From assembly GCA_965153455.1 (NCBI GenBank), contig OZ234493.1, positions 29,440,213 to 29,504,212 on the forward strand: a DNA stretch of 64,000 nt, read 5' to 3'. This DNA is from Sphagnum compactum. Lineage: Eukaryota. A program made the translations under genes and the position numbers. The notes under the pieces were generated by a model. The model searched no databases. It worked only from the letters and a program-made list of their open reading frames with translations, and was not told the DNA's origin. Of this stretch, positions 25,950 through 48,500 are shown piece by piece. Every line of letters begins with the position of its first letter. The first letter of the stretch is position 1.

Positions 25950-28900
25950 CATGTACATGCAACTTTATTAGTGTGGCCAATGTGTTTCTTTTTAGATTTA
26001 ACATTGTTGTTGTTGTTGGTTTGGGTATTTTGGAAAAGGATAAATAATATTGTTATTTATATTGTTTCTAAAATGTAATCGCATTTTGTGATAAAATATA
26101 TTTTGATTCTTTTAATCAATTCCAAATGTTATGTTATGGGTTGTTGCATACGATATTGTAGAAAGACCACATGATGAACTATCTATTTATTGCATGACAT
26201 TTGCATATTTGTATAACAATTGTTCAACATTTGTTAATTTAAAAAATAATTGTTTGATGTCATTGAGCAATATTTTTGTTAATGGTAGTTTTGAATAATA
26301 TATTGTACAATGTGAATCAAGTGCAAAAGTGTTTATTTTGATTAAAATCCAATGATTATTGTTGATGAAAACATGTTGAAAATATTTTCTTACAATTTTG
26401 TCTATTGTTCCCATGTTTGTGTAAGTGTGTTGTTCATATCTTAGAGATTGTAATTTGTCTTTATATAATATTTGCATAGCCATTCCCAAATGTTGGTCGT
26501 TTAACATCCATTTGAATTAAGAAGTATGTTTTCATCTTTGTTTGTTAATTGAAAATTTTCATGCCAATAATGTATGACATCATCATTATTCATGGCATTG
26601 TTTAAATCATCATTATTTCAATAGGGTTGTCATTTTTTGTTTTACACATTTCATGTTGCATTTGTTTCTTTTCCTTAAGGCATTTGGGAGTAATGGTTTT
26701 TTCAATGTTTGACATCACAACGGGTATTGTTGTCATATGTAATGACCCTTTTTAAAAATTAGCCTTGTGTATGTCTTGGATTATGATATCTCGTAAAATC
26801 ACGAGCCCTTTAAATAACGTAAACATAATAATGTTACATATATGTTGTGCATATTGGATTACATGTTGTTAAGTGGCTAATGAAGGTCTATCACCAAATC
26901 TTCAAATGTTTGTCCTTGAGTTTTGAAATTAGTCAAACAAAAATATGAGGCAAGTGGTAATTGATAATGACTAATATTAAAAGTTTTGGAAGTGTTTGAT
27001 CCTTGTATGGAATGATGATATTGGAAATTTCTAATTATCGGTGATATTGGTATGACATTCTTACGTAGACCTTTGAGGTTTATGTTTTGTAACATTTCAT
27101 GTTTTTGTATGAATTTATTAAGATTAATAAGAACGTTAATGGGTGGGTGCATTAAATTATCATGTTGAATCCAATGTGATTTTGTGAGTAAAATACTTTG
27201 GACATAACCAATTGTCCCTTTAAGAATTATTGTTTTTGGATATATGTTTTGAGTGATTATGACTTTCATTCCTCTATAAATCTTTAAGAATGGTGCTAAA
27301 TTTTGATTTTTATTTGTTGGCATGGTTTTCTTTATAATGAATTAGATGTCATTACGTATTGGATTTTTAAAATAAATATCAATAGCTAAAATTGTATAAC
27401 ATTTTTGTTTTAATGAATTTGAATTTATTTTTATGATTTGATGGTTGATGGCATTGCGTAATTCATTTCAAGGAACTATGAAGGTTGCCATCCTCCATGG
27501 ATTTTCAAATATATTTATTTAAATTAGAAAAAAATTGTGTTTTGAGTAATTCAAAGTTTGATTTAGAAATTTTCCCATTCTAAGATTTTTAGAAATGATG
27601 TGTAAAAGATGTCTGTGCTTTGTCACATTTGTTCTATCAATATTATGCTATTAGCATGAACATAATTTTTTCATAAAATTTTACCAATAATTTTCTTAAA
27701 GTTTGTTTTATGAATGCAAAGGTTGGTTGGATATTTGTTGAATACAATGGTGTATCAGTGATAGGTGGAAATTGTAAAAAATCGCCCATGAACATTATGT
27801 TCATCTCACCAAATGATAATATATTGGATTTTGATTTTTGCAATTTCAAATGTATTGTAGCAAACATGTTACAACTAACCATTGAAATTTCATCAATAAT
27901 TATGAATTCAATAGTTGACCAAATATCAACTATTACGTTTGATTATTAACAATGGCATGTTTTTCAATGGACAAGCCTAATAATGAATGTACAATTGTTC
28001 CACCCACTAACAATGTTGCATTTGCAATGTATGCCACAATGTGAATTTCTTGTTCATTATTCATTTCATAAAAAAATCTTGGATGGCTTTGATGACTTAT
28101 GTTTTTCCTATTCTCATAACACCTCCTACATGTTGTAATATTTGTTTCCTGGAATTCATTTGTGTGAACTTTTCAAATGCACGAACTTGTAATTTATTTA
28201 ATTTATATATTTAATTTATTAGTTTTTTAATGGACATTGGTGAATAAATATATTCATAAATTGATTTTATATTATCTATATTTGTATACGATTTATTTTA
28301 TTTATTTATTTCAATTGTGGGTACATGTCGTAGTTGAGGTTGTTGTGGGTTGTGATTTACATGTGTGTGATTCTTGTTTATATGTAGATGCATAATATCT
28401 GGCGTTGACATATTAAGTATATGATTTTATTTAATATATGGCTCCATTATTTTATATTATTTTGAGGTTCACTAGTTATCATATTCATGTCATCTATTTT
28501 GTTTTTTATACGTTTTATAATTTTCCATTGATTCAATTTTTCTTGTTAATTCAATTATATATTCTTTACTATTTGTGTTACATAATAAGTATTCCATTTC
28601 TAGTTGTTCAAATTTTGTTCTTGTTGTTTAGTATTGCATTGTATTATAATTTTGTCAATTTCTTCATGTATCATGTTTTCAACTTGTTTTAAATAGGAAT
28701 GATTTGTTATTGATTCATCATTTTCATTATCATGACATTCATATTTATTGAAATTCTAAGTAATTTAGTTGCATCTCTTGAATCTTTGCATTCATGTAAA
28801 ATTTTGATGTTTTTAATTATTTGTTTTGTAAAGTTGGAAAATTTTGAAAATGATTCATTCAATGTTGCACTTTCCATGACATAGGGAGGTCCTTTTTGAT

Positions 28901-29700
28901 ATCGAACAAAGTTCACCATGAAAAAAAATTAATAAAAGTTCTTCGAACATAATTTTTTGGATCATTTTTTTATGATGGTATTGTATAGCTTTGAATGACT
29001 AGTATTTTAGGTATTTTATATTCATATATAGTATGTGTTTTGTATTGAAGGTGATCCTAATGAAATCAATGACTACGAATATTATTGATTTTATTTGTTT
29101 TGCTAGAAAATTCATATGGAAAAAAAATTCAAAAATATTAGGTATTTGTTGATAATCGGTTCGAAATTTGTGTATGATATATTCTGATTTTTAAATTTTT
29201 TTGTCAATTGTAAATGTCTCAAAATTCTCATTTATGAAATTATTGTTTTTATTTTGGTTCATATCTTTGTTTTCTTGTTCATTTACCCGTGTTGATAAAC
29301 TATACCATGGTATATATGTGAAATCATAATCGATGATGTGATCTAATAAAATTTAATAAATAATTATCTGCTTTTGAAGTCGATATTTCTTGTTGGCCTT
29401 TAATTGTATTTAAACATCATATCAGTAAACGATGACTTTTGTTAATCAAATCATACGAGTTTATGTTATTATCAATTGAACTTCAATTTTTTGAATTGCA
29501 ATTTGTAAGAGGGAATACATGTGTGTAGGTTAGATGGATGTTTTTGTGATGTAATAAATCAATGATTTATTATATTTACTAGAAGCTATTATAATTTTTA
29601 GATCATGATTACATTTGGATGTTGATAATATCCATGGATTTGCATTATTTAACTATTTGTCTATTTTTTTAGTGCAATAGTCTAGTGTCATTGTCAAAAT
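25950..29700 (-). mobile_element. Helitron relic: Rep C-terminal region, PIF1 helicase and a C48/Ulp1-like protease segment
   Basis: Minus strand: NPWILSTSKCNHDLKII...SLIYYITK (Helitron Rep region), VGGVMRIGKT*VIKAI (Walker A), GGTIVHSLLGL, IIDEISMVS (Walker B), MGDFLQFPPI, QLPLASYFCLTNFKTQGQT. Then LNDQHL...NNNHWILI...SSCGL. Many stops. Confidence 0.85.
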
Positions 29701-29749
29701 GAGTTTCATTGACAGGCAAAGCTTTGCATGATTGAGAATGTGGGTGGAG

Positions 29750-31050
29750 TTGATGAAAATGCATCAAGTCCCCACATTCAAACCATCAAACAAATAAACA
29801 TAATGCACAATGCATCTACACACAACAAACGAAGACATATTAAAACACATTAAGAAAAAACACATTCAACTTTCAAGCTCCCAAAACCAAAGACAAAAAA
29901 TTTAAAGGTTTAAAGTTTAGGAGCTTACCTTCATTGTGAAATGCAACAGCTTCTTACTATTGCATGCTAAATCCAAAGTCCAAAATGTGGTTGTTGTTGC
30001 AAGTTGTGTCCAAAAACTAAAATCAAAGCAACAAAACATAGTAGCCAAGTAGCAAAACACAAAAGCGAAGCCAAAAAGAAATGCGTAAAACATTTAGGGT
30101 TAGGAGCTTACTTATCAATTAGGTTTCTTGTTTTTTCAAGTTGCGCCTATTGCATCCAAAACCAAGTAGAGCCAAGTAGCAAAATCAAGAAGCAACTTGT
30201 TGCTCCAAGCAAAGTCAAATTCCAAGAAAATAAAGCATTAAGTAAAGAGAAGCAAAATGTCAAGAACATTAAACATAGAAAAATAGAGTGCCAAGAACAC
30301 CAAACACTGAGAAGCAAAGTGCTGAAAGAGCACCAAGCACCAAGCACCAAGCACATAGAAGTAGAATGCTAAGAATGCGAAGCACAGAAAAGTAGAATGC
30401 TAAGAGTGCTAAACACAAAAAAATATAGTGCCAATAACACCAAACATCGAAAAGCAGAGCTCCAAGAGTGCCAAACACCAAGAAGCAAAATGCCAAACAT
30501 TAGAGAACAAAGTGCCAAAGTGCCAAACAAAGTGCCAAACATCTCAGAACACCACACATCACAAAGTGCCATGCATTAATATCAAAAGAAAGAACTTTAA
30601 AGCGCAAAGTTGAAGCAAAAATAAGCATTGAGCACAAATCACAAAGCATAAAAGTCCTAATGCCCAAAAACACAATGCCAAGCATTGCAAAATGCCACTG
30701 TCCATGCACCACAGAGTACCACCATCCATGCACTATAGAGCACCACGCACAAAGAATGAAAGAAAGAACATGTAACTTTAGAGTGCAAAGCAACTTGAAG
30801 CAAAGGTAAGCAATGAACAAAAATTACAAAGCGCAAAAACACAAATTGAGAATGAAAGAAGAAATTTCAAAACGCAAAGCAACTTGAAGCAATGGTAAGC
30901 ACTAAGCACAAATCACAAAGTGCAAAAGCACAAAAGCACAAAAGTCCCAACGCCCAAAACCTCTATGCCAAAAGCTTGAAAGTGACAAGTTCTTTGTTCT
31001 TCGCTCCTCTTGAACCTAAACCTAATTGAAAACCTTAAACCCTAAATGAA
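29750..31050. repeat. Low-complexity, A/C-rich minisatellite-like repeat region (likely internal TE repeat)
   Basis: Recurrent short motifs aagtgccaaa, aagcaccaa, aagcaacttgaagcaa and taggagcttac, with strong A skew on the + strand. Confidence 0.6.
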
Positions 31051-31349
31051 CTGCATATCCAACATTTTTTTAAACCCTAATCATTGGATATTAATTTCTT
31101 ACAATCCCTTTTAGCAATATGGTTAGATATAAAGATAATCAAACAAATCGGCATCCGGCAGTTGTGCACATTGCCAGTTATGAAAAGTGTAAAAAAATCC
31201 AGATATGTATGTATACATATGTGGCCATTGTGCATATGCATAACCGGATGAATCTGGATAATTGGACAACGTTGGCTTATACCTAGCGTTCTAGTCTACA
31301 AGAGCCTCATTGCCAACTTCCAATGATCTAGCATTGAAGCCATCCTAAT

Positions 31350-31570
31350 GGAATGGAAGTCCATCCATGAAAATTCAAGAAATCTTAGGATGAAATAAAG
31401 TTCAACCAAGAAATGTCATCATTAATTAATTTCATCCTTGGTGTACTTCAATCCACAAATTTATTTTTTGCATTTGAAGTCCAAATTTCATGGATGAACA
31501 TTCATGACATATTGAATGGATGAAGTAGTGTTGATGAAATTCTATGGACAAAAAAAATTATGGATGAAAA
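31350..31570. repeat. Dispersed repeat, copy of 1370-1612
   Basis: Direct sequence match to the 1370-1612 stretch. Confidence 0.8.
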
Positions 31571-33066
31571 GTTGAGCTTTCATGGAGTGAAGTTCATCCA
31601 AAAAATCATGCTTGCTAGAAGGGACATCCATGGGCATCATGGCCTTCAACAATGAGCTTGACATCCCTTTGCATACTCGAACAAAAACAGAAGGGTTGTG
31701 CTAGGAAGTGCTCCTCTCAACCAAAGACCCGTAAAGTCAAGAGAGAAAGAGAGAATGGAAGCCTGTGGAAAAATAGTAAAAATCAGGGGCAATCTGATCT
31801 TTTGGAACAGAAGAATCAGCAGAAAAAAAATTCTGGAAAAAAAATTCAAGCATTGGGCAGCTCAGAAAATTTTAACAGATGGGTAGCTTGAAACTCATTC
31901 AGGCAGTCCACGAGATGAAGTGGACTTGGCAATCTGGCAATGTTACCTCGGTGATGAGGAGTTGGCCACTTGTGAATGGTGACTTAGCCATATCGGTACA
32001 TTGCTATTGGTCAAACATCTTCCGGCCTTTAACCACTTTGGTGTTTGGGCAGCACCAAGATGTGTCTAGTCATCACTAGACACATCATCTTAGTCCAACA
32101 ATTGGGCAGCCAAGGGAAAAAAAAAAAGTAGACAAAAGTAGGAAAACAGAAAGTAGACAATACTTCTGTATTGTCTGCAATAAGTATTGTTGATTTAATG
32201 TCTGCCCTTAAGAGCTTTAGTAGGCATGAGGATATATTATGTGTCACTGATGGGAACTAATAAATGGCTATGATATATTAAGGGTGCATTTCATGGACCT
32301 ATATCACCTCGAACGAAAAATTAATTTAACAATGGATTTTTAGACTTTTTTTTATCAAATTCCTTTTGATAAAAGAAAGAATTCACAAGGGGGTAACCCA
32401 TTATAACAAAAATTTCCTTTAATAGTTTACCATGTAAAAAGAAGTCATTTCTTATTATTAGTTTGTATAGGTACAGATTTATGAAAAATATAAGGAAATG
32501 TTAGTGAACCAAGACATGATCAGTATCTTGGTTCAATATGTTTCTTCCTTGTTTGTTCATCTAAAACATGACATGACACCTTTTGATTCCACTACCAAGT
32601 TTATCCCAAACTCTATGCACACAACTCTCCTAACCCTCTCAATCAAATCTCTCATAAGTTTGTTGGAATGTGTAGCATTGAAAATTCATATACTTCTAAA
32701 ATTTTCTTTTGTTGGTGGTCAATTGGAACTTATGTTTTCTTGTTGCAATCGACTTAAGAAGGTGAAATGCCTTGGCAATTGTGTCATTTTAGGTTAAGGA
32801 TATTTCATTTTGATAATGCTTTGCTTAGCTTGAAGATTTTTGTAAAGAATCTTTTGGTTGGAGTGGAGATATTCAAACAACATTGTATTGCTTTGAAAAT
32901 TAACTATGGATTTTTATATACGTTTGTTTTAGGAAGGAGCTTTAAGATCTAGGATCATAAATATGGTTATTATATTCCATGAAAAATATGATCTCAATTG
33001 CATGCCCTAGTGAATTTATATAAATATGTATCTTTGATGTAATTTTTGGAAATTTTGTAGGGAAAA

Positions 33067-36000
33067 ATGAAACCCAAGAATGTTTCATCTTCAAACCTAG
33101 GTTTGAATTATGAAGACATTGGGGATGAGCATGGGCAAATGACATACATTGGTCCAATTTCCAAAACTCAACAACTAATTGAAGATATTATGATGTCTAA
33201 AGACCCAACAAGAATTCTTAAAACAACATCAACAATCCCTACCGCAATTGCAAGTTCTTCTAATATTCATGAAACTAAAACTGTTGCAAGTTTCATGATT
33301 CCAAAAATGGCACCACAACAATCAAAAACTCAACAAATGATTGAGTCATTCCTTGTTTCAAAGTCTCATGGAGATCAACCATTAGATGATATATTTTCAA
33401 CATTCGAATCACAAGCTCCAAAGTTGATGGTATTGGTCCAACCTTCAAGTTTCTTGGAAGATGGTATAGTTGATATTACCCCACGTACAATATATGTAGA
33501 TCAACCAACAAGTGATACATCTGATTCCTTAGAATCACAATCTCCACATTTAATAACATCTATTCAACTTTCAAGTTCAAGATCACCACCAATGGACGTA
33601 ATGCCATTAACTACAATCTTGTCATACCTGTCAACAAATGATACATCTCCAATTTCAACATCACATTCTCCAAACTTGATAACATCAATCCCACCATCGT
33701 TGAATTCACGATTCTTAATTGATGGTGGGATGTCACCATTAACAAACTTGCCCAAAGCTATTTTGAAAGTTGAAAATTTTGATGAAATACCTCCATTTGA
33801 TAAGGCACAAATATTGTTTCCACAAGGAGTTCCACAAGGTAGTCAAGAACCCCACTTTGTCAATGATATGTTCCAAGGTGATCACAAATTGAATGAAATG
33901 TTACCACCTACAATGGCAACAACATTACAAAATCCAAAGATGGGAAAGCCAATGCTCCCATCTATAACACAATTCAAACCAAAAACTCAACTAAATATTG
34001 AAATATTCCCACCAACATCGGCACCAATATTACAACCTTCAATGGAAGATGTTGAAGAAGGATCAATGGAAGAATCAGTGTCTCTCACTAAAGAAGAGTT
34101 TACACCAAAAATTCAAGTTGAAAATGGGATGTTCCCACCAACATGTGCAACAATATTACAACCTTCAAAGGAAGTTGTTGAAGGAGGTTTGATGGAAGAA
34201 TCAATGTTCCTCTTAACAACAGAACTTACACCAAAAACTTTATTAAAAACTAAGATGGTTTCGCCAACAGAGGCATTAATATTAAAACCATCAATAGGAG
34301 AGATTGAAGGAAAAGCAATACAAGAGTCAATGTCCTTCTCTACGAAAGAAATTACAACCGAAACTCAATTAGAAAATGGGATGTTCCAACCATCATTGGC
34401 AACAATATTACAACCTTTGATTGAAGAGGAGATGAAAGAACCAAAAGTGTTTCCATCTATGAAAAAGTCTGTACCAAATGCCCAAGTAAATAATTATGAA
34501 AATTTCCCATCTACATCAAAAACAATACTGCAATCTTCAATGAGAAAGGTGATGGAAGAACCGATGTTCTTGTCTACAAAAGAAATTACATTCGCAAAAC
34601 AATTCCCACCTAATATAACTACAAAGGCACCAATGTTCCCACCTACAACATTGGATAGGTCCCCACTTGAAATGATCACACATGTGATTGCACCACCTCT
34701 AATTGCAACGGTGCCCCTTCATTCTTTAGGTGAACAAAATATTCCAAAACTCCTTAATACATTTCCAACTACATCATCAAGGAAAGGAGAACATGATGAG
34801 TTACAACCTTCTTCAAATGTACAAAAGGAAGTTTCAAAAATCAATATGTCAAGTCATCAAAATTGTGCATTGTTACAAATTTCACAATTTGAAAAATTAC
34901 AAGAGCAACAACAAGACTTATTACATTTTCAAGATGATGCATTGGTGGAACATTTGCAATGTGTGTGTGCACCAGAACAATCATTTTCAAGCAATCAAAA
35001 TGTTGTGATATCAAAGAAACATTTGGATCTTAAACATGTAATGGAACCAAAACAAGAATTTTCAAATCATCAAGACATTGGCACATTGGCTACATGTTTT
35101 GAAATAAAAAAATGTGGAATTGAACCACACGATTGGAACCATGAAAATGAAGAATGTAAAACAACAATTTCATTAGAAACTAATAGCACATTGTCAAATG
35201 TCATATCTTCCAAATCCAAATATTGTCTACATTGTTTGGAATTGGATAACTTGAATGCACTTGGTTCATTACACATTACTACTATTTCAATGCCTTGTTT
35301 GACAAAAGGGGACAATTTTATTGGCAACAATAACACCACTTTTATACAACAATGTTATTTTTATGCTCACAAGGATCAAACACCAAGTAATGACAAAATC
35401 TTAAAAGCAAGACTTGAAGATGAAAGTGCTTCAGAAGAAATAATTTTTGCCACATCCACATGGCATGAAAAACAACATGGCCATGGCCAAGGTGGTGATA
35501 ATTGTGTTATGGATAAATTTGAACCAAGTTTTTCAAAACACAAATGCGGAAGCAACCACCAAATCCAAATAAACCATATGAACCCAAGTAATGATAATAG
35601 TTCAAATTGTTCAACACAAGTAATTTTCGAACTTTCAAAAACCACATAGGAAAGATTCAAAGGTTATTGCACACTTTAAGTTGTGATCAAATTGGAAATG
35701 ACAATCATCCAAAACAAGAACCATTCACCTTGGGGTCCTCATGGTTTATTATCCATGTTTGCAGTACAGGATTATCAATTTGTTGGGTCAACAATGGCAA
35801 ATGATGTTCAAATACACAACTCAAAGTATGATTGTCTTGTGAAAATTTCTTACTGACAAATTTTTTCAAATTGTTAAAATAATTTTTTTTTACACAATTT
35901 CAATTATATCATTCTTCACAAATATGCAATGTTTATGACTTGTTGTGCTGAATTTAGTGTTGTTTATTTATTAGGGGAAGAATTCAAGTTTGTAATGATT

Positions 36001-39000
36001 TGAGTCACATGGATTTGAAACTACACACAAGATTGTTGGAAGTTGTTGATTGCTTTCCTCTCCAACAATTTGCAACACAATTTTGCAATCTCAACTATGG
36101 GGAGACAACAGATAACATTCTCCAATTCATTAAGGCATAACTTTATAATTCCTATTTATTTAATATCATTTTTTTCATAGAAAATAATTTAGTGCACATT
36201 GACAAGTTGACCATGATGATATATATAATACAATTCATGACCAAAAAATGTGTGGTTGGTAGGAACCTTTGAAAGCACCATTACTTAAGTATGTGCAAAG
36301 TGGATGTATTGCCACCACTGTGTTTTCACGTAAGCTTTACATTCTTTTCATTTCCAAAATTTCCATTTAATATTCATTTGGGTTATGGATCCTTTTAAAC
36401 ACATAAATAAATTCCCCAAATTTCAAAATCATGTGTCACATTGTATCTATATGTAACAACTATGACAATAAGGGAAATCAAAGCTTTACATGACATTTTT
36501 AATCTAACTATGTGTCAAAATTGAGGTTGATGGAAATAGATTTGATGGCTTACATGGGAGATTTACCATCAAAATATGACAATTTTTATCATGTAAGCCA
36601 AATTTTATCCATGGGGATGAAACATACAAACTTGTCTGATGAAATATTCTTTCAAATTTGCAAGCAAGTCCACTACAACCCCAATAGGCAAAACTTCATC
36701 CTATGGACCCCAAATGGTTGATTGATTCAAATGACCTTTCATTGGTACAAACAATCATGTTGTTTTGGATTTTTATATAAACTTTCAACTAGTTGACTTG
36801 TTAAGCATTTCAAGAAATTGCCATGTCTATTATTGGTGTGAATGAAGATGTAGTAGCCATTATTGAATGTAAGACAAAAATTGACAAAATTCATATTGCA
36901 ATGAATAATTCTAATTGTGAAGTATTGTGTAATGGGTGATGAAAAGAGAACACAGGTTGAGTTGTCAAAAAGGATGGCAAGCATTGGCACTTTGTTGTGG
37001 CATTTTAACACCATCTTCTATCTTGAAGCTATATTTGGAGGCTCATCTAAAGCTTATTGTGTGACCTTAATCCTTAGCCTCTATAACCTTAAAACCTTTT
37101 TTATGCAAAACATTGTACATTTATTTTGGCAAACCATGGTTAAACTTTCCTCTTAATTATGCTTTCAAAATGGTTAAATATACATATTAATGTTATATGA
37201 TGCTTTAGACAAAAAGTGTTATGAATATCAAAAGAATAAATTTATAGGAAACTCATGATAATTGATTGATTATCTCTAGGTGGCTGAAGATGGATTTAAG
37301 GGGGCAACATTTATGTCCAAAGACCAACATACTTGTAATTTAGTTTGTATGGCATCTTATTGTCTAAAACGCATGAAGAAGTTAACTCAAAATGGGCCTA
37401 GGCAATTTCTTCCTTTACCAAAAGAAATCAAGGCAGTTGAGGTCTTTTTTTCCACTCCTCATATTCCAATTGACTTTTGTATTTCCACCATTATGAAAAA
37501 TGTAATGTTGCATAAATGAACTTCCTAAATACATTAAAAGTCCTTGCCATTGTCCAAGAGGTTCTCACTTGGTTAGTAAAGCACATGTCCTTTAGTCACA
37601 ATACCACCCATGTCCCCATTCCATACATGCACACATCCTATCCATGGCATGTATACTGTGCATTTGGCATTGCATGTAAACATATGCATGCATATTTCCT
37701 TGATCATGTTTTTATTGGATAATGGTTGGCTAGGGGTAGCCATGTGGCCTTGAGCACAATGGCAAGGCCTTTTAATGCATTTTCGACATTCATTTAACTC
37801 TAGTTTTGGGGTAGGTATCAAAAAAATTGCAGGTTTCGAACATGGCACATGCTACTATATCAACATGATGTAGAATCCTGGGCATGCCTTGGACACTTAT
37901 ACTTTATAAACATATTGGGGCCAAGCTTTTGATACTTGAGCTTGGGCCAATGTATTCCTCATACCTTTTATCACAATCCTATGAATTATGTCTTGATGAT
38001 TTAATTTGATAAATTGTGAATTGTAAATTCATCCCTAGAGCTAACATAAACTTTGTCTTTTGCAGAACAAGGAATACATCCATATCCATTTTTTTATTCC
38101 AGGTGGAAATTGCCAGGTTTATTCCACTTCATGTGCTTGATATTTCCAACAAGTTATTCACAATTGAGGATGACCATCAATGGTTTTCTTTTTTCCTTTT
38201 TTTTTTCTTTGCAAATTTTCAATATTAGAAATTTGATTTTTTTTTCCAATGATTAGAAAAATTAGTTGAAATTACACAAGAAAAACACAAATTTCCAATA
38301 TCAAATTTTTTGAAATTCTCAAAAAAAAAATCAGTTTTGAAATCAAAAAATTACCCAAAAATTCCAAGGTTTTTTGTGGAAAAAGATAAAATTTACAAGA
38401 AAAGAAAACACAATGAACATTTGACCTTGTTAAAGGAATTGGTATATTTGAACTCACCTTTTCACAATGGGCATGAATACTGCAGATCAAAAATATTGAT
38501 CCAATGAGCACAGCTGAAGAATTGACAATGGAAATGGTAAAAAAGATTGGTCTCTTGGAGGCCAAGTACTATGGCATTTTCCATGTCGACATGAATGGAG
38601 GTCTCCCTTGCACTTCATTTGAAGACCTTAAAATCTATAAAGTACCATGGAATTGGTTGTCTATTTTTTTTTGCAATGTGGAAAGAAAATTTTGACTAAT
38701 TTATTGAGACCCATCTCCATTAAATCTAAATGCATGGAAATTATATTTGACTACTTGGCTCTATGAGGTACCTTGTCCATTTGACTAGGCGGTGCTTACC
38801 ACTTCTTTTGCTTGTAATCACATTAGAAGTTTGATTCTATGTCACAAAGTTGTTTCTTCATATTTTTATAATAAAGTACAAAGAAATATGCACCTAAAAC
38901 CTAAGGCAGGATCATGGGTCCACAATATTACAAAGCTTCCATATATAAAGTTCAATGGAATTGAACTATGTTGAGAACCATGTTTTCACAATCATTTATC

Positions 39001-42000
39001 ATGATGCTTACACTTTTTATTTTCTAAAAGAGAATATGTACATGACTTTGATTTAATTGCATATCTTTCTTTTTCACCACTAAACAAGCATCGAAAACAA
39101 AATTATTGTGGTTTCTATTTGTTTGTTGCAAATTTGATCAAGAAGTTCAAATGGACAAACATCTTGAGAATGACAATATTTGATAAAAAAACCATATGTG
39201 GGAGATTTCTTGACATGACATTTGATGCATCTATGATTTGCTTTCAGTTGAAACCCTCCTTTCCTCAAGAGAATATATAACAGATTCAATGGCAAGATGG
39301 AATCGTGGTCTGACCACGAGATGCCAAAATGTGGAAAACAATCAAGTTGGACTTGAGAAAACTAGCAATGGAGGCCTCACTACAGATTTAAATATTTCTC
39401 AACAAGCTAATACAAGTGACATCTTCATAATGAAGCGGAAGCTTTTTTTGAAGTGCAATGTTGCATTTCCAAGCACGGCAATTGAGGCCATGGTTTTGTC
39501 TTTTGACTATTTTCAGGTATTAAGTCATTGTAAAGACAAAGGATTGCAATTCCTACATCTTGGATTTCTTTAGACAAATTTTATGATTTTTTCAACCCAA
39601 AATTTGGGAAATTTGCATTCATCTAGTGTGAATTTGAATAATTTTGCTAAGTTTTGGGAAACTCTTGCCAAATGTATGATATCACCAAATTGGAGAAAAC
39701 TTTGTTCCAACTTCCTATCATAAAGATTGCACTTCAATTACATTCATTCGAATAGATAAGTTCAGTACCAAAATTTTGACAAGAATTGCATTAAAGTTGG
39801 GAACCCAAATCAGGAATATTACATCAATTCCTAGTGGTGAAGGTGAGCAACTGCCAATGATTCTCCGCTTGAAACATGGCCTCCCTTAGATAGCACGGTG
39901 TTATAATATATGTGAAAGGATCCATGATTAGCTTTGTTGGAATGGAGTTGGGATTGTTAGGCAGTGCATGAAGTGGTGACAGGATTTTTTACTCTTGCGG
40001 AGGTTGATGCTTTGATGTTGGGGGCGCTCCAATTAAGAGCAAATTATGGTTCAAATATCTCAAAACAACAAATCACGTACACCTATTGATCCAAGCAATC
40101 CTTTAAATATTCAAATTTCATCACACTTTAAAGAAGAAAATGACACTAAGTTCATTTACCAACTATGACTCATTACTTCATTCACCATGCAAGGGTCAGA
40201 AAAAGGCTGCAACTTCTTTATGAAAGCCAATTAACACTTGAAAATTGCTTTTCATTACAGGAACTAATGCTTAAATGTTTATGCTAAAAAATTCTTAGTG
40301 TATTTGGAGGGTACCTTATCTTCATGGATATCCTTTTTAAAAAAGAGGACAGATCTTACACCTACTTTTGCAGAGTGGGATGGATCTTACACCTAATAAG
40401 TAGGCATAAGAACTTGATTAGGCTAAATTGGAATGGACACTGAGAGGGTATTATTGTTGTTGACAAATGGAATAGAGAATTGAAAGCTGAAACATTTGGG
40501 GCCAAGGAGTTCATTCAAGGTAGGGATAAGCGATGGAACAAGGCAGTACTCAAGACTCTAGACGCATTACCAGCAGGGAGGAACTTCATTGAATGTAGAC
40601 AAGATTATATGGAGTTTTTGCAGAGTTGTTGCCCTCTTTATGGGTCCTGCTTTTTCTTTGTTAAGGCAAGTCAAATGTACATATACATCATTATAGGAAA
40701 TGTTTCTCAACTATAACTAATCTCAAAATTATAATAATGTTTTTGTTTCTTTTCTGAGTTTTTTGAGAGAATGTAATATTGAAAAAGATTGGCAATTTGC
40801 GTATTGATTAATATTAGATGCTAGCACACTCACATGGAAGTGAAAACATTTGGTGGGATGGGTGGCATATTGGATAGCAAAACAATGATCCAGAAATGCC
40901 TCTGCAAATGTTTCTAGCTATCAATGCGAGCGGTGTCCATTTAACTGAGGTTGTCACTAAGGTATCATAAAGACCTACCTCAAATTTTCTAAGCGTATTT
41001 AAAGGGAGCTTTTTAATCATAATATTGGACAAGACAAATTCCATTGTGTAAGAAATCTTCTATAATATAAGGCATCTTCATGACCAGACATGTTGGCATT
41101 TTGATTAGTTACATTGGTCTTTATGCAACATAAGGGCAACATTTTAGTGCATTCAGGGTTTCTCAACCCCATGTGACCTTAGTTAGGTTCCCGCCTTCAT
41201 CCATGGAGCTCTAAAACCATGAAAGCCTTTAAGCACATTTGGTTGTGCACAACATGTGAAACCACATTGGGAAAAAATTATGTAATGATAAAGCATCTTC
41301 ACCAATGGCTTATTGTAAACTATTTTGAAACTGGGTTTTCAATAGTGTGAAACTTGGTTTGCACTCTGGACCTACATATATGTTTTGAGCATAGTGCCAA
41401 ACAAGATGGTTAGTAAAACAAAATGACTACTTTTTATCAATCGGCCATAACTATTAGCCCAAGAGCTTGGCATTCAAATAGTCTATAACTTTTCACTGTC
41501 CAATTTTTCATGTTTAAAAATAACATGGGGGAAATAATTGACATTGTGTGTTGGATGTGATAAACACAATATATATAGGCCCAAACTTTGGGGGCGGGTG
41601 TGGAGCTGCTCTTACTAGTTCTAGATATCTTTGATGGATAGAAGACTAAATGTTCTATGAATGTGAGGGGTGTAACATGAAACTTTGACATGGGAAACAG
41701 GAATTATTTGTGCGCATGCAGTTTGTTGAAATCATGGGATGGAGCATTTCAAAATCCGATTTTTCAATCTTGTCATGCAAGGAGTATTTGTTCTCATTTT
41801 AGCCTCTGTATAAGTTATATTGTATTGGTGACTAATGTAATCCTTGAAACAAGAACAATGCCCTCCTCTCTCATTGAGATCTAAAAAATTAAAATGGATT
41901 AACCATAGTTGGAAGTGCCAATCTTCTTCATTCTGATCAAAAGCATGAGGACTAGCTAAAATATAAAAGTTGTGACATGTGAGTTATTTATCATGAGTTC

Positions 42001-42326
42001 CCTTTTTTTTTGGCAGGGGGAAAACTCGAGAGTTTTGGCTTGAAACCCAACAGGTGTGAGTCTAATAATGTTGCTCATCCCAATGGTCGATTTACAAATT
42101 GTTTGGAAGATTGAGATGATAAATTGAGATAATCTAAAACTGTCACAATATACTTGTAAAATATGATCATTTGTTAATCTAGTTCCTCTATAGTTGTTGG
42201 TCAAAAATAGAAAAAGATTTTACATAACATTGTTGAATGTTGGAGTTGCAGGGTGAAGAAATAGGGCACACAATTTGCTTATACAAAGAAGACCAAGATT
42301 GTCAGCAAAGAATGGAACAAAGATGA
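33067..42326 (+). CDS. Motorless MyTH4-FERM domain protein with a long repetitive low-complexity N-terminus
   Basis: Exons 33067(33061)-35587, 35765-35825, 35975-36134, 36263-36329, 36540-36687, 36956-37058, 37280-37441, 38066-38116, 38486-38600, 39248-39516, 39961-40076, 40476-40665, 40878-40961, 41701-41783, 42017-42053, 42252-42326 join in frame. MyTH4: LMAYMGD, LSDEIFFQICKQVHYNP, KGWQALALCCGILTPS, YCLKRMKK..GPRQFLPLPKEIKA. FERM: IDPMSTAEEL, KRKLFL, ALMLGALQLRANYG, YMEFLQSCCPLYGSCFFFVK, LAINASGVHL, ETQQGEEI. The 5' end is uncertain because an acceptor at 33060 suggests upstream exons. Confidence 0.85.
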
Positions 42327-42699
42327 TTGCCCTAAAATGGAAATATTGAATTGGTGTTCCTTGTTCCTTCTCATTTCAGTACCCAACAATGCCTTGACTA
42401 CCATAGTACGATGGCAAGTTCAAGATTTCAAGGTCGAATAATAATTTTATTTGAAATAGACTAGTATTCCAAAACATTCTAAAAGATTTTCTATTTTCCT
42501 TCACAATTTTTTCCCTCTTTGAGGTTTATTTTTTCAATATTTCAAAAAATGATGTAATTAGTGTTGAAGCTGCAAAGGTACTTTGGTAATTCAATAACAA
42601 TCTATGACAATGTGACCTTGTTCAAGTCATCAGTTAAAATAAAAGAACCTATGAGATTGAATTCATTAGTACAAAATTTGAAGCAACAAAACAAAATGT

Positions 42700-43060
42700 T
42701 GCTTGTGGTTGTACCCATAGGTAATATCTCAATCAAAACTCAAATAGGTTTTACAATGTCTAGTTTATTCATTGACTCGTGTGTTACACTTCTTTGCTCT
42801 TTGAACCCATGTGAACAAAGAAATTTGGGGAGTGTTATATTTCCTTAAAAAAACCCCTCCTACAATCATCAATTCATGTGAGGTGCAAAATTTGTGTAAT
42901 GTTTCCAACAATCTTCCAAACCTTTGTAAAAGACTCACATTTGTATTACGTGCTCCCAATTCATGTTCCCTATGGTATCCCTCTAAGTTGATATCCATCC
43001 CATTCATGTTGTCAATGTTGATGTCCAAGCAATGGTCCACCCACAAGCCCCCTTGCTAGT
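42700..43060 (-). mobile_element. Degraded LINE endonuclease-domain fragment
   Basis: ORF 42765-43046 (...RFGRLLETLHKFCTSHELMIVGG...) resembles the segment after GDFNAR in AP-endonucleases of non-LTR elements. Short and eroded. Confidence 0.35.
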
Positions 43061-44582
43061 CATATGTCAATTATATCACAAGTGTACATAGCTCATTCCT
43101 ACATTGCTTTAACTTTTCAACCGTTCAACAAGTGGGTTCAATCAAATTGAAAGGCACTCATAGGAATTTCATGATGTATTTGGGGGTCACCTCATATTCA
43201 TGAATATTAGTGTTGCCTTTATCAATTGAACATATATTGTAACATACATTTATAAAGTATATATGTTCATGTGGAATCCAATTTTCCTAAAAATTGGTTA
43301 AAAAATCATTATTTAATTTGCAATGACAAAATTTTCTCAAACTTCAATCATTTTCACAACATAGTTGCGAAAATGATGAAATCGCCTCCATGCACCCATA
43401 CTCACTGAAGGCTTTCTTAGGATACCAAGATTGCAGCACCCCAAATTTCTTTAAGATTTTTTTTTGGAATTTTTGCTGATGAAAATACTCAAAATTCAAT
43501 AACTTTTGCATCATAGGTCTAAAAATTTATGAAACATTTTCATGCACCTCTATTCATCAAGAGTTTTCTAAGGGTGCTAAAAACACCCAAGGGAGGGGCT
43601 GGAGGGAAGGCGGAGATCTGAATGTATTGGCCGAACTGCATTAAACCTCTTGTAATGTTGCTCATAGTGATTGGCCCCATGGTTTGGGAGTGCCAAAAGC
43701 ATTCCCCATGTAATGTGAATGGTGATAGTACTAAAGGATAAATAAGATGGTCAATGGGAATCACTACTAGAAATTTTGTCATATGCAACCACCACGTTTG
43801 CAACTGGGATGCAACTACGGGTCGCATGCAACTATCTTTGGTTTTTTATGCAACTACAATGGATTTTTGCCCCCTTTTTGGGTGTGTATGCAACTATGAT
43901 CACCTTCATCCCAACCTTTGGATGATTTTTGTGATATATCATCGTATATATTTGATATGCATATACTCATAGTTGCATGTGCAACCAAAATAGGCCAACT
44001 ATGGTCTTTTGGTAAGCTGGGTACACATTTTTTGTACCCAGCGACCATTTTTTCAAACACAATTGCAGAACGCGGGAGAGTGTCGTGGTCTTCGGTGTCT
44101 GTCTCGAGCTTCTCAGCGGAACCCTAAACCTAGGCGTTGGAAACCCTAATGGGATTTCCTTCACTCTTCTCTAGGTTGTGCACAATTTCTCGTTTGCAGA
44201 TTGGGCTTTGTAAGAGGAATTGCAGAGCCCTTTTTGCTTGCTTGCTTGTTGCTTTTCCAGACTAAGAACTGCTTAGGTCTGGCTTGTTTGGTGTTTTTGG
44301 GAGAGTTCTAGGATGGTGGGAAACCAGTTAGAGTAGTACTAGTGGATATTGTTCATGAGCTTTGGAGGAGGACGGGGTGGAGAAGTGCAGAGAGAAGAGG
44401 CTTCTTTTTGTCTCTATTTCGGTAGAGGAGCGAGGCAGGAGCTTCTTCTTTGCTGCTGTGCGTGATTTTTTTTCCTTGGCAAGGATGACTTGATTTGGAG
44501 GTTATAGAGGAGGGCCCGTCGTGTTTTTGTACCACTGGTTAGATCATCGCGTTGCGTGCGAAATAGGGCAATACCGCGGCCG

Positions 44583-45332
44583 ATGGCAGCAGATGGAGAA
44601 GAGCGAGTTCTAATCACAGCACAACAGATTGTGAGATCGTTAGGCACCACAGATACTGCAATGACGGACGACATGCTCCAAATTCTCTCGAACTTTGATC
44701 ACAGATTCTCTAGCATGAATGACAAGCCCAAGAAGCTAGAGTTTAGTACCTCGCATGAGGTAGGCACAACAGCTACAGATGAGGATCTGCAGTCGAAGCG
44801 TTCCCGACCTTCTTCACGGGGTGCGGGCGGTTCGAAGATGATCGAATCGCGCCTTGATCATGCGGAGGATGTGGTGGTTCGATGGCATCTGCGATACTCA
44901 GAGCGAGCCAAGCAGCAGAGGATTTTCGAGTGCCCGGAAGAGGAGGCTTCCACTTATCTGGAAGCGGTGGACGAGGTACAGAACCTGCTGGATCAGTTGT
45001 CCGTGCAAAACAAGGAGGAGGAGCAGCAGCCTGCAACCCTGGAGAGAGCACAGAACGTGATTCAGCTGGCGATGGAGAGACTAGAGGAGGAGTTCCGCCA
45101 CTTGCTTGCGCAGAACAGCCGATCTGTGGACCCGGATTGGCTCTTTGACTCCATGGCAGTGGCTGGATCGTTCAGAAGCTCTTTCGATGACGATCATCAT
45201 CATACCGTAGATGATGCCGTAGCAGCATCGGAGATCAGCTCCTCCGGGGAGGAAGATGCCGCCGGAGATGAAGACGAAGACGTTCTCCCGGTGGCAAGAC
45301 CCAGAGAAATTGTGCCGACGACAGTGGATTTG
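44583..45332 (+). pseudogene. EXO70: Exo70 (exocyst subunit, F-clade-like) 5' fragment, exon 1
   Basis: MAADGEERVLITAQQIVRSLG...DDMLQILSNFDHRFS...YLEAVDEV...IQLAMERLEEEFRHLL...VDL is the typical plant Exo70 N-terminus. It ends at TTG|gtgcac (possible donor); the ORF otherwise stops at 45344. Confidence 0.88.
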
Positions 45333-45586
45333 GTGCACGCGTGAACGAACAACGAGAGAGGGAGAGAGAGCGCGATTTTCAGATCGATCAAAGTCATTTT
45401 TTCCTGTGTCGTTCTTGCGGGATCTGTGGCAGCAGTGGTGCTTGTGTGAAGGAATTTTTTCGTGGATTTTTATTTTCTAAAAATTTCACTTTTTTGTTGA
45501 GGATCCAGAAGAATACATATTGTGAGGTTGTGTTTTTGTTGTGGGAGTTGGGGGGGGGGGGGGAGGGTTGGAGTGAAGAAAAGAAG

Positions 45587-48500
45587 ATGGATTGGAGCAA
45601 TGTGACGGTGGAGGAGCTTGTGGATGCTCTCAAGGAAGTGGAGTGGGCCACGCCGCCAAGGCCACTGCCGGAATTCTTTCAGAAGTTTACCACCCCCAAG
45701 ACTCAATCCAAATGGAACGCTCGCCTTAAATGCAACGTTTACTAGTAAAAGCCCTTCACTTCTTCTTCTTCTTCTTTGTTTGTATGCGTGTGTGTGCGCG
45801 CTTGTGTAGTGCATCTTACTCTTTGGAAGATCTTACTCATGTAGGCAGATGCGTCAACAGCATGAATGTTTTTTTACTTTGGTTCCGAATTTTATTGTGA
45901 AGCTTTTGCTCTGGTTTCAGCCATGACCAGACACCTTCCGGTCTCCCAAAAGGTTCAGAGAGACGCAGAGATTATGATAGGATGGTGAATTTTGGGGAGC
46001 TGTGTTAGAGTCTTAGCTGGAAAACCTAGCTGGAAACCCTAAATGTTGGATCCAAATGCTGCTGTGTTTTAGGGTTACTCCTTTCACTACATCATGTGGC
46101 CATGATGTTCTTTTGTAAAATCCATCCTATGTGGTACTGTTGGTGTAGCTCAAGAACCCTTGAGCTCCCTTCTGTAGGATTTGAACTTTGTTTTTGCCTT
46201 TGAGTAACATGTGACCCTCTCTCTCTATGCCTTTGGCTTAGATGAGTGTGATTACAGGGACAAGCTAAAATCAAACAAATTTTTACCCCTCATAAGCTTG
46301 TTGCATTTTGAAAGAGGATACTAGTGACATTTTTATTATTAGAAGCTATATCTCTTGAGATATAGCCAACATCATGATGGAGTCTTCCTGCTGCTTCCAG
46401 ACATGCAACAGAAACTCAGGATGCAGATTTGTAGCATTGTTTGCCCAGGTTTTGGACTGTTCATTATATACTTATCCACACCACCCACCATCAGTCAGGA
46501 GCTGATGAAGTCAGTAGGTAGTCATGGCAGCTCATTGCTACTATTCATGATGAAGGTGATTGTCTGACACTTTATGAGCAAGTCTCATACAGTTTATGAC
46601 TGCACTTGTCGTGGAGATTGTCTGCAATATCATAGATACTTGAGTGACACATGGATTGAATTTTTCTTGCCTGTCATGAGGCTTGTGTTGTACATGAGGA
46701 CTGAACTATCAAGTTTAATAGAATAGAGTACCAGTTCTTGGTCTCTGGCAACAGGGCAGATGGACACCTACACACATGGATTGAAAGTTTGTCTCACCTG
46801 TCATTAGATCGTGTTGTACACAAGGGCTGCACTATCAAGCCTGATAGAATATAGTGCCAATTGTTGGGCTCTGGCAACAGGGTGGGCACCTGCACATGCA
46901 GATTGAAAGTTTTCTCTCACCTTTCCTTAGATTGTGTTGTACATGGGGACTCAACTATCAAGCTTCATAGAATGCAGTAGCAGTTATTGGACTCTGGCAA
47001 TAGGACCTACACCCACACATCATATTGCCATTGAAGTTCTAGCAATTGGAATTTTGTCCTTTCTTGTCTTTTATCCTCCAACATTCTTGTCCTGAAAGGT
47101 TGTCTTTATGCTCTCTGTTTTCTTCCTTCTTTCTTTTCTGGGGTTTCCTTATTTTCTTGCTGTTTCCCCTTTGTCTTTCCCTTTGTATTCCGTTCCTCTC
47201 TCTTCTTGCAGTTTTTTGGTCCTCTCTCTCTTTTAGGTTTTCTTGAGCTAAACATCATGGCTGAATTTTCCAGTTACTGATAGTCTTATGACAGAACTCA
47301 GGATTCAGTCTAAACTTTAAACTCTAAGCCCTCACCCCTTGCCAGGAACTGATGTCCCCTGTCTTTGGGCTACCAACATAATTGTGGCCATGTGGGCCTC
47401 CTTATTCATTCTAAACTGTCAAAAAGTGAAATACTCGAATTGGGGCTGCAAGACCCGATTTCCTTTTAGTAATTGGTTGTTTTGGCGAAAGCTGCTGATT
47501 ATCATTGACAGATTGGTATGAAGATTATGACCACTGAACCCATCATTGAAACTATTCTGACAATTTCTCAGAAGAATAAAAGAGGTCATGCCCTTACCTT
47601 AGGACAATCTTGGATATCACATTTGAAATAGTCTGCATTATACTCATGAGCATTTTCTCTCCTCTTTTCTAGCTCTTCTTTCAGATCATGCTTGTGAACA
47701 TGCTTCCTCTACCTTCTGGATGTTCTTTTTACAGTTATAAGTATGTGTGCAGCATTTGTGACTGCATACATCATCACATACAACACTCAATCTAATACAT
47801 TCTAAAATGTATTGGATGTGCAGCTATCGAACCAACTACTTGATCATCTTGACTCTGATGCTTGGTGAGTCAACTGATCACTGGCTAACTTGGAATTGAG
47901 ATTTTTCATATGGCCAAATGAGTCTGTGTACAGTCCAGGAGATGGTATCTGCGTTTGGTTAAGGCTGAAACATGCTAATATCTGAATACAGTCCAGAGCT
48001 TCTTTTTACTTGGAGGTGAATCATTTAAAAAAGAGTTATGATATGAGCTGCTTGAATATTTCTCAGAGTGTTTCTGATAACAAAATTGTTTGTCTACAGT
48101 GATTGCACTTCTGCGACGACCTTTGGGACTCATTGCAGTGATTTTTGCAGCTCTGAGCATTGGATGCCTGAATGACAGGTAACGTAAACTATTCTAACAG
48201 GCATGAGAAAGCTGAAGCATTGTATCACACAGCACCAGAACAAGCTCCTTTATGCATCGAGGCAAAATAGCAATTAATAGTTCCTGGGAGAGATGAAAAG
48301 TACTACTGCTTGTGCGACATTAAGAGATTGATCATTACTTCTTGAACATCCTGGCACCTTGGTTGTCATTAATGTGCTGTCTTGTCATCCTCCAGATCTG
48401 CTCAGAGCTCTGGGAACTTTTGAAAACTCTCAAATTATGAACAATATTATTCACTTTTTCTTTCTCATAACCAGTTTCTTAGTTTGTTTGCTGATGAGCT

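Follow-up and report, generated by a model that had tools for sequence, protein, structure and literature searches.

PLEKHH and MAX-1 are animal motorless PH-MyTH4-FERM proteins in which the MyTH4-FERM tandem is C-terminal. In plants, KCBP is the sole MyTH4-FERM protein described according to the available part of one report, which also states that its MyTH4/talin-like region binds microtubules (PMC1434745). For myosin X, the accessible section of another report describes a basic patch on MyTH4 that binds tubulin tails, with residues R1643/K1647/K1650 (PMC3155308).

We analysed a 64,000-nucleotide stretch of Sphagnum compactum DNA (the window), for which a sequence-only reading had proposed an intact, motorless MyTH4-FERM gene. 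Our results make it likely that this is a functional nuclear land-plant gene of a streptophyte family, encoding a motorless protein of ~1390 aa with a fast-evolving, low-complexity N-terminus and a MyTH4-FERM cassette of the myosin VII/X-tail type.

Gene structure and domain content

Splice models were built by script, in frame, and two variants were obtained. In model B, positions 33067-42326 of the + strand give a single spliced open frame of 15 exons (4167 nt, 1388 aa) with one terminal stop. Model A (16 exons, 4230 nt) differs at exon 11, in place of which it has 40151-40194 and 40445-40665. Model B appears to be the better of the two, because its lengths fit the homologues better. The start codon, an ATG at 33067, lies six bases downstream of the in-frame stop delimiting the 33061-35649 ORF. 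The terminal TGA is at 42324-42326, closing a last exon of 75 nt (24 codons and the stop). The 14 introns have 14 AG acceptors, 11 GT donors and three GC donors, two of which have weak flanks. The protein runs from an 840-aa Ser/Thr/Pro-rich first exon through MyTH4 to FERM.

Five collinear related loci, with ~93.4% nucleotide identity to the window gene, were available for comparison; two of them (L003 and L005) stop short of exon 13. All splice dinucleotides, including the three GC donors, were kept in every locus over its reach, and no frameshift was found in any of the five.

All exons lie on the + strand. Exon 1 (33067..35587) encodes the 840-aa region; its chosen donor, CAA/GTAATG at 35588, is one of several in frame. 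Exon 2 (35989..36134) encodes the N-terminal extension of MyTH4, with a length that matches the homologue alignment, and ends in a GC donor (AAG/GCATAA); this donor and the AG acceptor are kept in 5/5 related loci. Exon 3 (36263..36329) begins the MyTH4 region and holds a conserved PLL motif. Exon 4 (36540..36687) encodes the MyTH4 core, is 54% identical to Marchantia by tblastn, and ends in a phase 2 GC donor (TAG/GCAAAA) whose GC is kept in 5/5 loci. The position of this intron is common to other plants, whose ORF fragments read through at the same codon. Exons 5 (36956..37058) and 6 (37280..37441) continue MyTH4 to its end; both were matched by tblastn, the latter with 58% identity to Marchantia over 31 aa.

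The FERM region starts in exon 7 (38066..38116), which was placed by homologue alignment as the first strands of F1 and has splice sites kept in 5/5 loci. It continues in exon 8 (38486..38600; F1, tblastn) and exon 9 (39248..39516), which completes F1 and, after a variable insert, opens F2; in the related loci this exon is longer by an in-frame insertion of 9 nt. Exon 10 (39961..40076) encodes F2 and is 62% identical to Marchantia over 32 aa by tblastn. The following intron contains a repeated element at ~40288-40470, as judged from read depth and loose ends. Exon 11 (40476..40665) spans the end of F2 and the start of F3, matches Selaginella by tblastn (E 4e-13) and has a GC donor (AAG/GCAAGT) kept in 5/5 loci. 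The rest of F3 is encoded by exon 12 (40878..40961), exon 13 (41701..41783, with alternative in-frame donors at 41772 or 41790), exon 14 (42017..42053) and exon 15 (42252..42326). Exon 14 has a T-rich acceptor tract and the donor CAG/GTGTGAGT, and shows zero substitutions in the 3/3 related loci that reach it. Exon 15 supplies the C-terminal helix of F3 in 24 codons before the TGA at 42324-42326; relatives show a +3-nt indel here and a stop 3-4 codons earlier.

Pfam detected MyTH4 (PF00784) in three exon-ORF pieces: 36503-36718 (profile 2-34, 32.7 bits), 36933-37061 in exon 5 (profile 29-64, 32.2 bits) and 37280-37516 in exon 6 (profile 71-105, 21.3 bits). The curated cut-off is 27 bits, which two of the three pieces pass alone. 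On single exon ORFs, matches were found to RA_2/FERM_N at 38477-38692 (exon 8), RA_2 at 39226-39570 (exon 9; weak, E 0.13, well under cut-off) and FERM_M at 39961-40086 (exon 10); these FERM matches are sub-threshold on single exons (RA_2 17.8 bits, FERM_M 18.1 bits). Seven plant homologues, all motorless and drawn from Marchantia, Riccia, Calypogeia, Selaginella, Ceratopteris and Chara, were made into a profile without the window sequence. The model B protein matched this profile with 506.5 bits over positions 190-695 of 700; the highest score among 20 shuffles was -0.7 bits. The homologues aligned end to end with the spliced protein bear RA_2, FERM_M and IRS (the F3 lobe) above threshold, and this profile alignment places the three lobes F1, F2 and F3 directly behind MyTH4.

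Kinesin and myosin families were absent among 148 ORFs of at least 75 aa outside 33-43 kb of the window (Pfam), among 124 + strand ORFs of at least 20 aa inside the gene, and among 106 + strand ORFs of at least 27 aa in 24332-33066 and 42327-44507. No kinesin was found between the FERM stop (42324) and the next gene at 44508, and no myosin head in the 860-aa upstream ORF or the flanks (Pfam). Pfam scans of a Marchantia relative (P0016; MyTH4, RA_2/RA, FERM_M, IRS) and of a shorter Ceratopteris isoform (P0013; MyTH4, RA_2/RA) showed no motor, and for the remaining matches the precomputed Pfam lists name neither kinesin nor myosin families. The initial description of the gene held: the frame is open through the exons to the 24th codon of the last one, where a clean stop follows; MyTH4 and then FERM are recovered by profile, PF00784 in pieces and the spliced protein on the family profile; and Pfam matches to kinesin or myosin number zero in the gene, its flanks and the rest of the window.

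The N-terminal exon and its probable join to the cassette

The exon 1 ORF (860 aa) had no Pfam match at E up to 1. Its N-terminal region is 27% S+T+P, and by this composition and the lack of a Pfam match we call it putatively disordered. A 126-nt tandem repeat (x3.5) lies within the exon at 33978-34417. Against the related loci, exon 1 showed a dN/dS of 0.68-0.71, and 3/3 indels were multiples of 3; neutral evolution, simulated 5000 times, left its frame open in only 0.6% of runs. At a dN/dS of about 0.7, the exon appears barely constrained. The exon 1 ORF has many relatives, about 89% identical.

We infer that the 840-aa exon is joined to the remaining exons, although the polyA RNA-seq run X7 described below contains no RNA junction between the two halves. 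We give some weight, as a less probable reading, to two genes: the 860-aa ORF (33067-35649) with its own stop, and a separate ~540-aa MyTH4-FERM-only protein starting at ATG 36009. This ATG, inside exon 2, is in frame as an alternative start and is kept in 5/5 related loci, and the ORF stop at 35647 is TAG or TAA in 5/5. Of the T-rich acceptors, the one at 35975 looks best, and the final 300 nt of the ORF offer it no GT donor in frame. However, acceptor 35989 can be reached by ten in-frame GT..AG pairs, and its AG is kept in 5/5 loci. An N-terminal extension also precedes the conserved cassette start in 6/7 aligned homologues, mostly of about 125-215 aa, with Ceratopteris reaching about 700 aa; the exception, the Riccia B model, begins right at the cassette. 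Similarity between the N-terminal regions of the window protein and the Ceratopteris protein was looked for and none was detected. The database 'proteins' whose end coincides with the ORF stop derive from small contigs of JGI/IMG, ENA and Logan. They resemble plain ORF calls and so provide no evidence for a stand-alone gene. A single gene with a long first exon remains our preferred model.

Selection, copy status and expression

For exons 2-15, dN/dS against the related loci was 0.34, 0.31, 0.29 and 0.20, with dS (0.055-0.096) about equal to intron divergence (0.059-0.069). Indels in multiples of 3 made up 5/5 of the exonic ones and 5/51 of those outside exons against L001, and 2/2 and 4/43, respectively, against L004. 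When intron-like divergence was simulated 5000 times, exons 2-15 kept an open frame in only 2.3% of runs. Together, the conserved splice sites, the in-frame indels and the dN/dS of 0.20-0.34 indicate, at the level of sequence, a gene under purifying selection rather than a decayed copy.

We consider it very unlikely that the locus is an unexpressed relic that lost its function recently and has not yet acquired stops. Such a relic would fit the zero reads in run X7, the two weak GC donors, and one further related contig whose 36-aa fragment (P0007) would require exon 4 to be shifted by +1 nt, which may reflect either misassembly or a dead allele. Against it, the low dN/dS of exons 2-15 is accompanied by dS at the intron rate, exonic indels are all in frame compared with about 10% of non-exonic ones, the GC donors persist in 5/5 loci, and chance openness of exons 2-15 is as rare as given above. 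The window gene also retains 62/73 family-invariant columns (Selaginella 75/90, Riccia B 71/103; other members keep 69-100% in a leave-one-out count), and its replacements at these columns are conservative.

Even more doubtful is a copy borne by a mobile or multicopy element. Six protein clusters at 81-89% identity, short contigs differing by 3-4% in three runs, and TE pieces nearby (a PIF1 fragment, RVT and hAT) would agree with this. However, the related loci are collinear over 32044-43430 including introns, and share the same downstream neighbourhood, matching the window at 50866-51445 and 58585-60668. The contigs are environmental and may represent different species or alleles, and the unit has neither terminal repeats nor a transposase.

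In run X7 (one polyA run, about 12% read, tissue unspecified), depth was 0 in 24/24 bins over 32000-43615, and 21-83 on the neighbouring gene at 44100-46035; the reads are of another genotype, with 524/832 only 95-99% alike. For Marchantia, the available part of one dataset gives mean TPM values for Mp4g21760.1 of about 1e-5 in the wild type (BoGa) under far-red and 0.57 in the swi3 knock-out; the wild-type and knock-out means for Mp4g21760.2 are 0.21 and about 1e-4, respectively (PMC13190419). Every value for these transcripts there is <1 TPM, and the Arabidopsis-ID field is blank (PMC13190419).

The protein may act as a passive linker. By analogy with myosin X and KCBP, a basic surface of MyTH4 would hold microtubules, while the FERM lobes would grip a peptide stretch from a cargo or membrane protein and the variable N-terminus would provide lineage-specific contacts. 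Few cell types probably express the gene; our leading guess is spermatogenic cells. To our knowledge, every named relative comes from a plant with flagellate sperm.

A motorless streptophyte family and its neighbours

The named matches comprise five liverwort proteins from four species, one lycophyte protein, one fern protein and Chara: Marchantia polymorpha Mp4g21760 (MARPO_0090s0045), Riccia sorocarpa R1sor_014862 and R1sor_027348, Riccia fluitans R1flu_015344, a Calypogeia fissa protein, Selaginella SELMODRAFT_414494, Ceratopteris KP509_04G017100 and Chara braunii CBR_g11025. The searches behind this taxon range have known blind spots. Identity between the window protein and each homologue is 32-37% over 459-524 columns (Chara, 33% over 216 columns), the same distance as the homologues show among themselves. 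In a 19-row tree of the plant family and myosin cassettes, without KCBP, the window protein and eight plant proteins formed a clade (support 100/99) against 10 myosin MyTH4-FERM cassettes. Its nearest row was the second Riccia type, and it had no settled place within the family. On these comparisons, we judge that the gene belongs to the same family as two liverwort types (the Marchantia Mp4g21760 group and another in Riccia) and the Selaginella, Ceratopteris and Chara proteins.

Our literature searches found no paper on a motorless MyTH4-FERM plant family. Its members are already in databases as "hypothetical protein" entries, to which the window gene adds one. This grouping with motorless plant homologues agrees with the proposal of a little-described motorless family. 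The suggestion that it was kept in bryophytes stood as far as the liverwort members go but was too narrow, as a lycophyte, a fern and Chara also have it.

When 1.84 billion representatives were searched exhaustively by phmmer for relatives of the MyTH4 exon, 21 matches were returned, among which KCBP was absent; 0/15 longer matches scanned had a kinesin domain. Four of the 15 were myosin-like, three with heads (P0015, P0017, P0021) and one (P0022) in myosin VII/X-type tail cassettes. We regard a truncated duplicate of the KCBP kinesin that lost its motor as extremely improbable. A few residues just past the F2/F3 border may resemble those of KCBP, and KCBP is the only such plant protein described in the source cited at the outset. 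Against a duplicate, the longer matches include no kinesin and four myosin-type proteins. In addition, the available part of another report lists Marchantia KCBP as Mapoly0012s0174, a gene separate from Mp4g21760/MARPO_0090s0045, and gives 93% identity between moss and Arabidopsis KCBP FERM-C (10.1101/629733), compared with ~35% between the window protein and its own family. The view that the gene is not KCBP was upheld, and this indirect comparison supports its not being a recent copy of KCBP either.

Like PLEKHH and MAX-1, the window gene is motorless with a C-terminal MyTH4-FERM; unlike them, neither it nor its plant relatives have a PH domain by Pfam. Among solved structures, the family profile matched myosin VII/X/XV-type tails best (myosin VIIb, E 4e-52; also VIIa and Dictyostelium myosin VII; myosin X, about 1e-34), followed by talin F1-F3 (about 1e-17). 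The MyTH4 exon alone matches myosin VIIb, and the Marchantia member is filed under PANTHER PTHR22692 'myosin VII, XV'. Alignment of the exon to solved chains yielded no usable match for the equivalents of myosin X R1643/K1647/K1650. The window gene differs from these myosins in having no head, IQ motif or SH3 and one cassette rather than two, and the plant family forms a clade apart from the 10 myosin cassettes tested. With KCBP/ZWICHEL, a kinesin-14, it shares a single MyTH4-FERM cassette in a plant protein, which in KCBP binds microtubules in the part of the source available (PMC1434745); however, KCBP carries its cassette N-terminal to a coiled coil and motor, whereas that of the window gene is C-terminal and motorless. 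With the streptophyte family itself it shares the order of variable N-terminus, MyTH4 and F1-F3, the lack of a motor and one intron position; from most members it differs in an N-terminal region of 840 aa rather than about 125-215 aa.

Gene model and splice sites

A long plus-strand open reading frame (ORF) spans 33061–35649; its first ATG lies at 33067, and it gave no Pfam hit. Downstream of 35649, short ORFs matched successive segments of the MyTH4 profile, three in all, and more weakly RA_2/FERM_N and FERM_M. Gene models were built by reading the DNA, with tblastn of plant homologues as a guide, followed by in-frame assembly by script. Model A comprised 16 exons (4230 nt) and model B 15 exons (4167 nt; 1388 aa with a single terminal stop). 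Model B, which omits a doubtful 44-nt exon of model A, agreed better with the homologues in length. The spliced model B protein scored 506.5 bits (profile positions 190–695 of 700, residues 880–1376) against a profile made from seven homologues with the window protein left out; the best of 20 shuffles scored −0.7 bits. The sequence-only reading had proposed that the exons splice in frame, ending 24 codons into the last exon, and that they encode MyTH4 and FERM domains. The domain matches and the profile score bore out the latter, and both models supported the former, as they run from 33067 to a TGA at 42324–42326.

In model B, all 14 acceptors are AG, whereas the donors are GT in 11 cases and GC in three (36135, 36688 and 40666, plus strand). 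GC-AG introns make up roughly 1% of plant introns, and GC donors usually have strong flanks. Three of 14 in this MyTH4-FERM gene is far above that rate, and two of its GC donors (GCATAA and GCAAAA) have weak flanks. On both sides of the three donors, the coding sequence agrees in length with the homologues to the residue, and ORF fragments from other plants read through or stop at the very codon at which the intron after exon 4 is placed. As GC was also present at all three donors in all five collinear related loci, we regard them as real rather than as modelling artefacts. Canonical GT alternatives to two of them (36717 paired with 36949, and 40670 with 40894) were rejected because they spoiled the length match and deleted residues conserved in the homologues. 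Most exons span only 37–270 nt, three introns are GC-AG and ORF callers pick up only the big first exon, which shows how such genes escape notice.

Two introns showed further features. A small repeated element at approximately 40288–40470, in the intron before exon 11, had raised depth, loose ends at 40288 and several odd joints in sequencing runs X2 and X4; the related loci also carry it. In the intron after exon 12, 134 nt (41061–41194) were missing from two loci (L004 and L005).

We then considered whether exon 1 and the MyTH4-FERM exons form one gene or two. Exon 1 is rich in Ser, Thr and Pro (27% combined), and its protein showed no similarity to the N-termini of the homologues. It contains a 126-nt (42-codon) tandem repeat at 33978–34417 (3.5 copies, 71% matches), whose copy number varies, since the related protein P0001 has ~76 extra residues there. 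The ORF could be spliced to an acceptor at 35989 through any of ten in-frame GT..AG pairs; both the AG of this acceptor and an in-frame ATG at 36009 were kept in five of five loci. Six of the seven aligned homologues, all but the Riccia B model, have an N-terminal extension, which reaches ~700 aa in Ceratopteris. These in-frame pairs onto a kept acceptor, together with the extensions, favour a single gene in which exon 1 would be spliced to the MyTH4-FERM exons.

Relatives without a motor domain

In plant cell biology, KCBP is regarded as the plant MyTH4-FERM protein; the motorless family adds a second. Neither the gene, its plus-strand flanks nor the rest of the window yielded a kinesin or myosin domain, in agreement with the motorless architecture proposed from the sequence. 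Queried with the MyTH4 exon, a word-index search returned no candidate, and an exhaustive phmmer search of 1.84 billion representatives gave 21 hits. These included Marchantia Mp4g21760 (666 aa) and the 1108- and 1251-aa isoforms of Ceratopteris KP509_04G017100. None of the 15 hits (of 21) scanned with Pfam had a kinesin domain. Marchantia P0016 contained MyTH4, RA_2, FERM_M and IRS with the motor absent, and the shorter Ceratopteris isoform (P0013) contained MyTH4, RA_2 and RA behind an N-terminus of ~800 aa. Using the Marchantia protein as the query added Riccia sorocarpa (two types), Riccia fluitans, Calypogeia fissa, Selaginella and Chara braunii; the precomputed Pfam lists of the Riccia, Calypogeia, Selaginella and Chara relatives included no motor families.

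The window protein shared 32–37% identity with family members over 459–524 columns (Chara, 33% over 216), and the members were as distant from each other as the window protein was from them. It kept 62 of the 73 columns invariant in the other members, and the replacements were conservative. In a 19-row tree of nine plant proteins, the window protein among them, and ten myosin cassettes, the plant proteins formed a clade (support 100/99) with no firm internal order. An ESM Atlas look-up with the Marchantia protein returned motorless MyTH4/RA_2/FERM_M clusters and myosin VII/X clusters, with no kinesin family or name among the rows listed. Against solved structures, the exon 11 ORF gave only a chance nitrogenase match.

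Marchantia KCBP is Mapoly0012s0174 in the excerpted text of 10.1101/629733, a gene separate from the family member Mp4g21760 (MARPO_0090s0045). On this indirect evidence, together with the lack of a kinesin domain in the gene and in the scanned phmmer hits, the gene is read as not KCBP, as the sequence-only reading had it.

The family is already in databases, as hypothetical proteins. Searches by family gene IDs found no publication; those on MyTH4 in Marchantia found work on KCBP only, and among the matches listed for MyTH4 with antheridium or spermatozoid none named MyTH4. Among the matches listed for MyTH4, FERM, land plants and kinesin, no title or abstract described a motorless plant MyTH4-FERM protein. 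Family gene IDs and MyTH4/FERM were absent from the PMC6290024 and PMC12849711 supplements. FERM and the gene IDs were also absent from the main text of a study of genes common to sperm-bearing plants (10.1101/2021.07.25.453666), whose supplements may list the family. The suggestion that this family is little described therefore held for the gene IDs and MyTH4 terms searched.

Related loci, selection and neighbouring genes

The ORF relatives at 81–89% identity proved to stem from ORF calling on small contigs (JGI/IMG, ENA and Logan). Our first reading of these as a multicopy or transposon family was rejected because the contigs are small and environmental and the loci collinear and syntenic. 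A metagenome contig scan yielded five loci collinear with window 32044–43430 at ~93.4% identity, introns included, and related loci extend downstream to the RPS28e side of the window. Two of the five (L003 and L005) stop short of exon 13, and splice sites were counted only as far as each locus extends. When model B was projected onto the five loci, all exons and splice dinucleotides were kept where covered and no frameshift was found; in three loci the stop came 3–4 codons earlier.

For exons 2–15, dN/dS was 0.34, 0.31, 0.29 and 0.20 in four loci (L005 not included), with dS near intron divergence. Exonic indels were all multiples of three relative to L001 (5/5, vs 5/51 non-exonic) and L004 (2/2, vs 4/43). 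Together with the kept splice sites and the intact frame, these values indicate clear purifying selection on the MyTH4-FERM cassette. In exon 1, dN/dS was 0.68–0.71, and the exon stayed open in 0.6% of 5000 trials of random substitutions at the observed number; selection on it is chiefly for an open frame. One further related contig, with a 36-aa fragment implying a +1-nt shift in exon 4, counts against a live gene; it may be a dead allele or an assembly error. Taken with its relatives, the gene shows that non-seed streptophytes have maintained, under purifying selection, a second MyTH4-FERM family, one that lacks a motor.

The window consists of plant nuclear DNA. Upstream of the gene, in AT-rich sequence, lie a DUF659 (hAT transposase) fragment (13613–14185, plus strand) and a Helitron-type PIF1-helicase fragment (27646–27942, minus strand). 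Pfam hits placed an NB-ARC/WHD_ROQ1/LRR (NLR) gene at 21148–24517 (plus strand), spread over five ORFs that abut or overlap and differ in frame (21148–22311, 22441–23397, 23401–23673, 23660–24331 and 24335–24517); short introns may account for this, or the gene may be broken. Downstream, a high-copy repeat at 43616–44099 had a summed contig depth that ranged from 471 to 6674 across three runs, whereas depths nearby were in the tens. An Exo70 gene starts at 44508, and the ORF after its Exo70_N exon (45272–45742, plus strand) had a PRA1 match below threshold (E 6e-5; 23.1 bits, cut-off 30.1). Loose ends of RNA reads at 44320, 45332 and 45337 resembled splice donors of this Exo70 neighbour. Further downstream are a reverse-transcriptase piece (56115–56606) and an exon of RPS28e, which is spliced. 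Three loci (L001, L002 and L004) pass from window ~43761 to ~58585–60668, with 50866–51445 matched in L001 and L004 only, so ~15 kb of the window (43762–58584) is missing from them, including the expressed Exo70 gene and the reverse-transcriptase piece. This difference is either an insertion in the window or a deletion in the related loci.

Expression, putative role and comparison with known cassettes

In the single RNA run used (X7, polyA, ~12% read, tissue unspecified), whose reads differ from the window, depth was zero on 32000–43615, which counts against a live gene, and 21–83 on Exo70. A word-based look-up of sequencing runs listed no RNA run, and six runs of unspecified kind contained 0.21–0.22 of the words. 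In Marchantia far-red samples, both Mp4g21760 transcripts were below 1 TPM: in the wild type and the swi3 knock-out, respectively, Mp4g21760.1 was at ~1e-5 and 0.57 TPM, and Mp4g21760.2 at 0.21 and ~1e-4 TPM (PMC13190419 supplement). Such low values are compatible with cell-type-restricted expression but do not prove it.

The family was present in Chara, liverworts, one lycophyte, one fern and the window plant. The named relatives all come from plants known for flagellate sperm. In Arabidopsis, excerpts of PMC1434745 place MyTH4-FERM domains in one kinesin and no other protein. On these two grounds, a putative role in spermatogenic cells is our leading guess, albeit a tentative one. It is conceivable, if rather doubtful, that the ancestor of streptophytes already had a second MyTH4-FERM lineage, without a motor, that tracks flagellate sperm, ties spermatid microtubules to membrane or cargo, and was lost with motile sperm. 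The array tethered in this way would be that of the spline and flagellar apparatus. If true, this would be a plant-specific sperm-cytoskeleton adaptor that vanished together with motile sperm. As Marchantia has a member, knock-out and localisation tests of the family are easily reachable.

A search with exon 6 against solved structures, aimed at locating the counterpart of the myosin-X basic patch R1643/K1647/K1650, matched nothing usable. In myosin X, as outlined in parts of PMC3155308, the MyTH4 domain engages tubulin tails through a basic patch, and cargo peptides dock in the F3 groove of the FERM domain; in KCBP, the MyTH4/talin-like region binds microtubules (excerpts of PMC1434745). By likeness to both, the protein would tether microtubules to a membrane or cargo partner without driving their movement. 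The solved cassettes closest to the family profile were those of myosin VIIb, myosin VIIa, Dictyostelium myosin VII and myosin X, with the talin FERM next.
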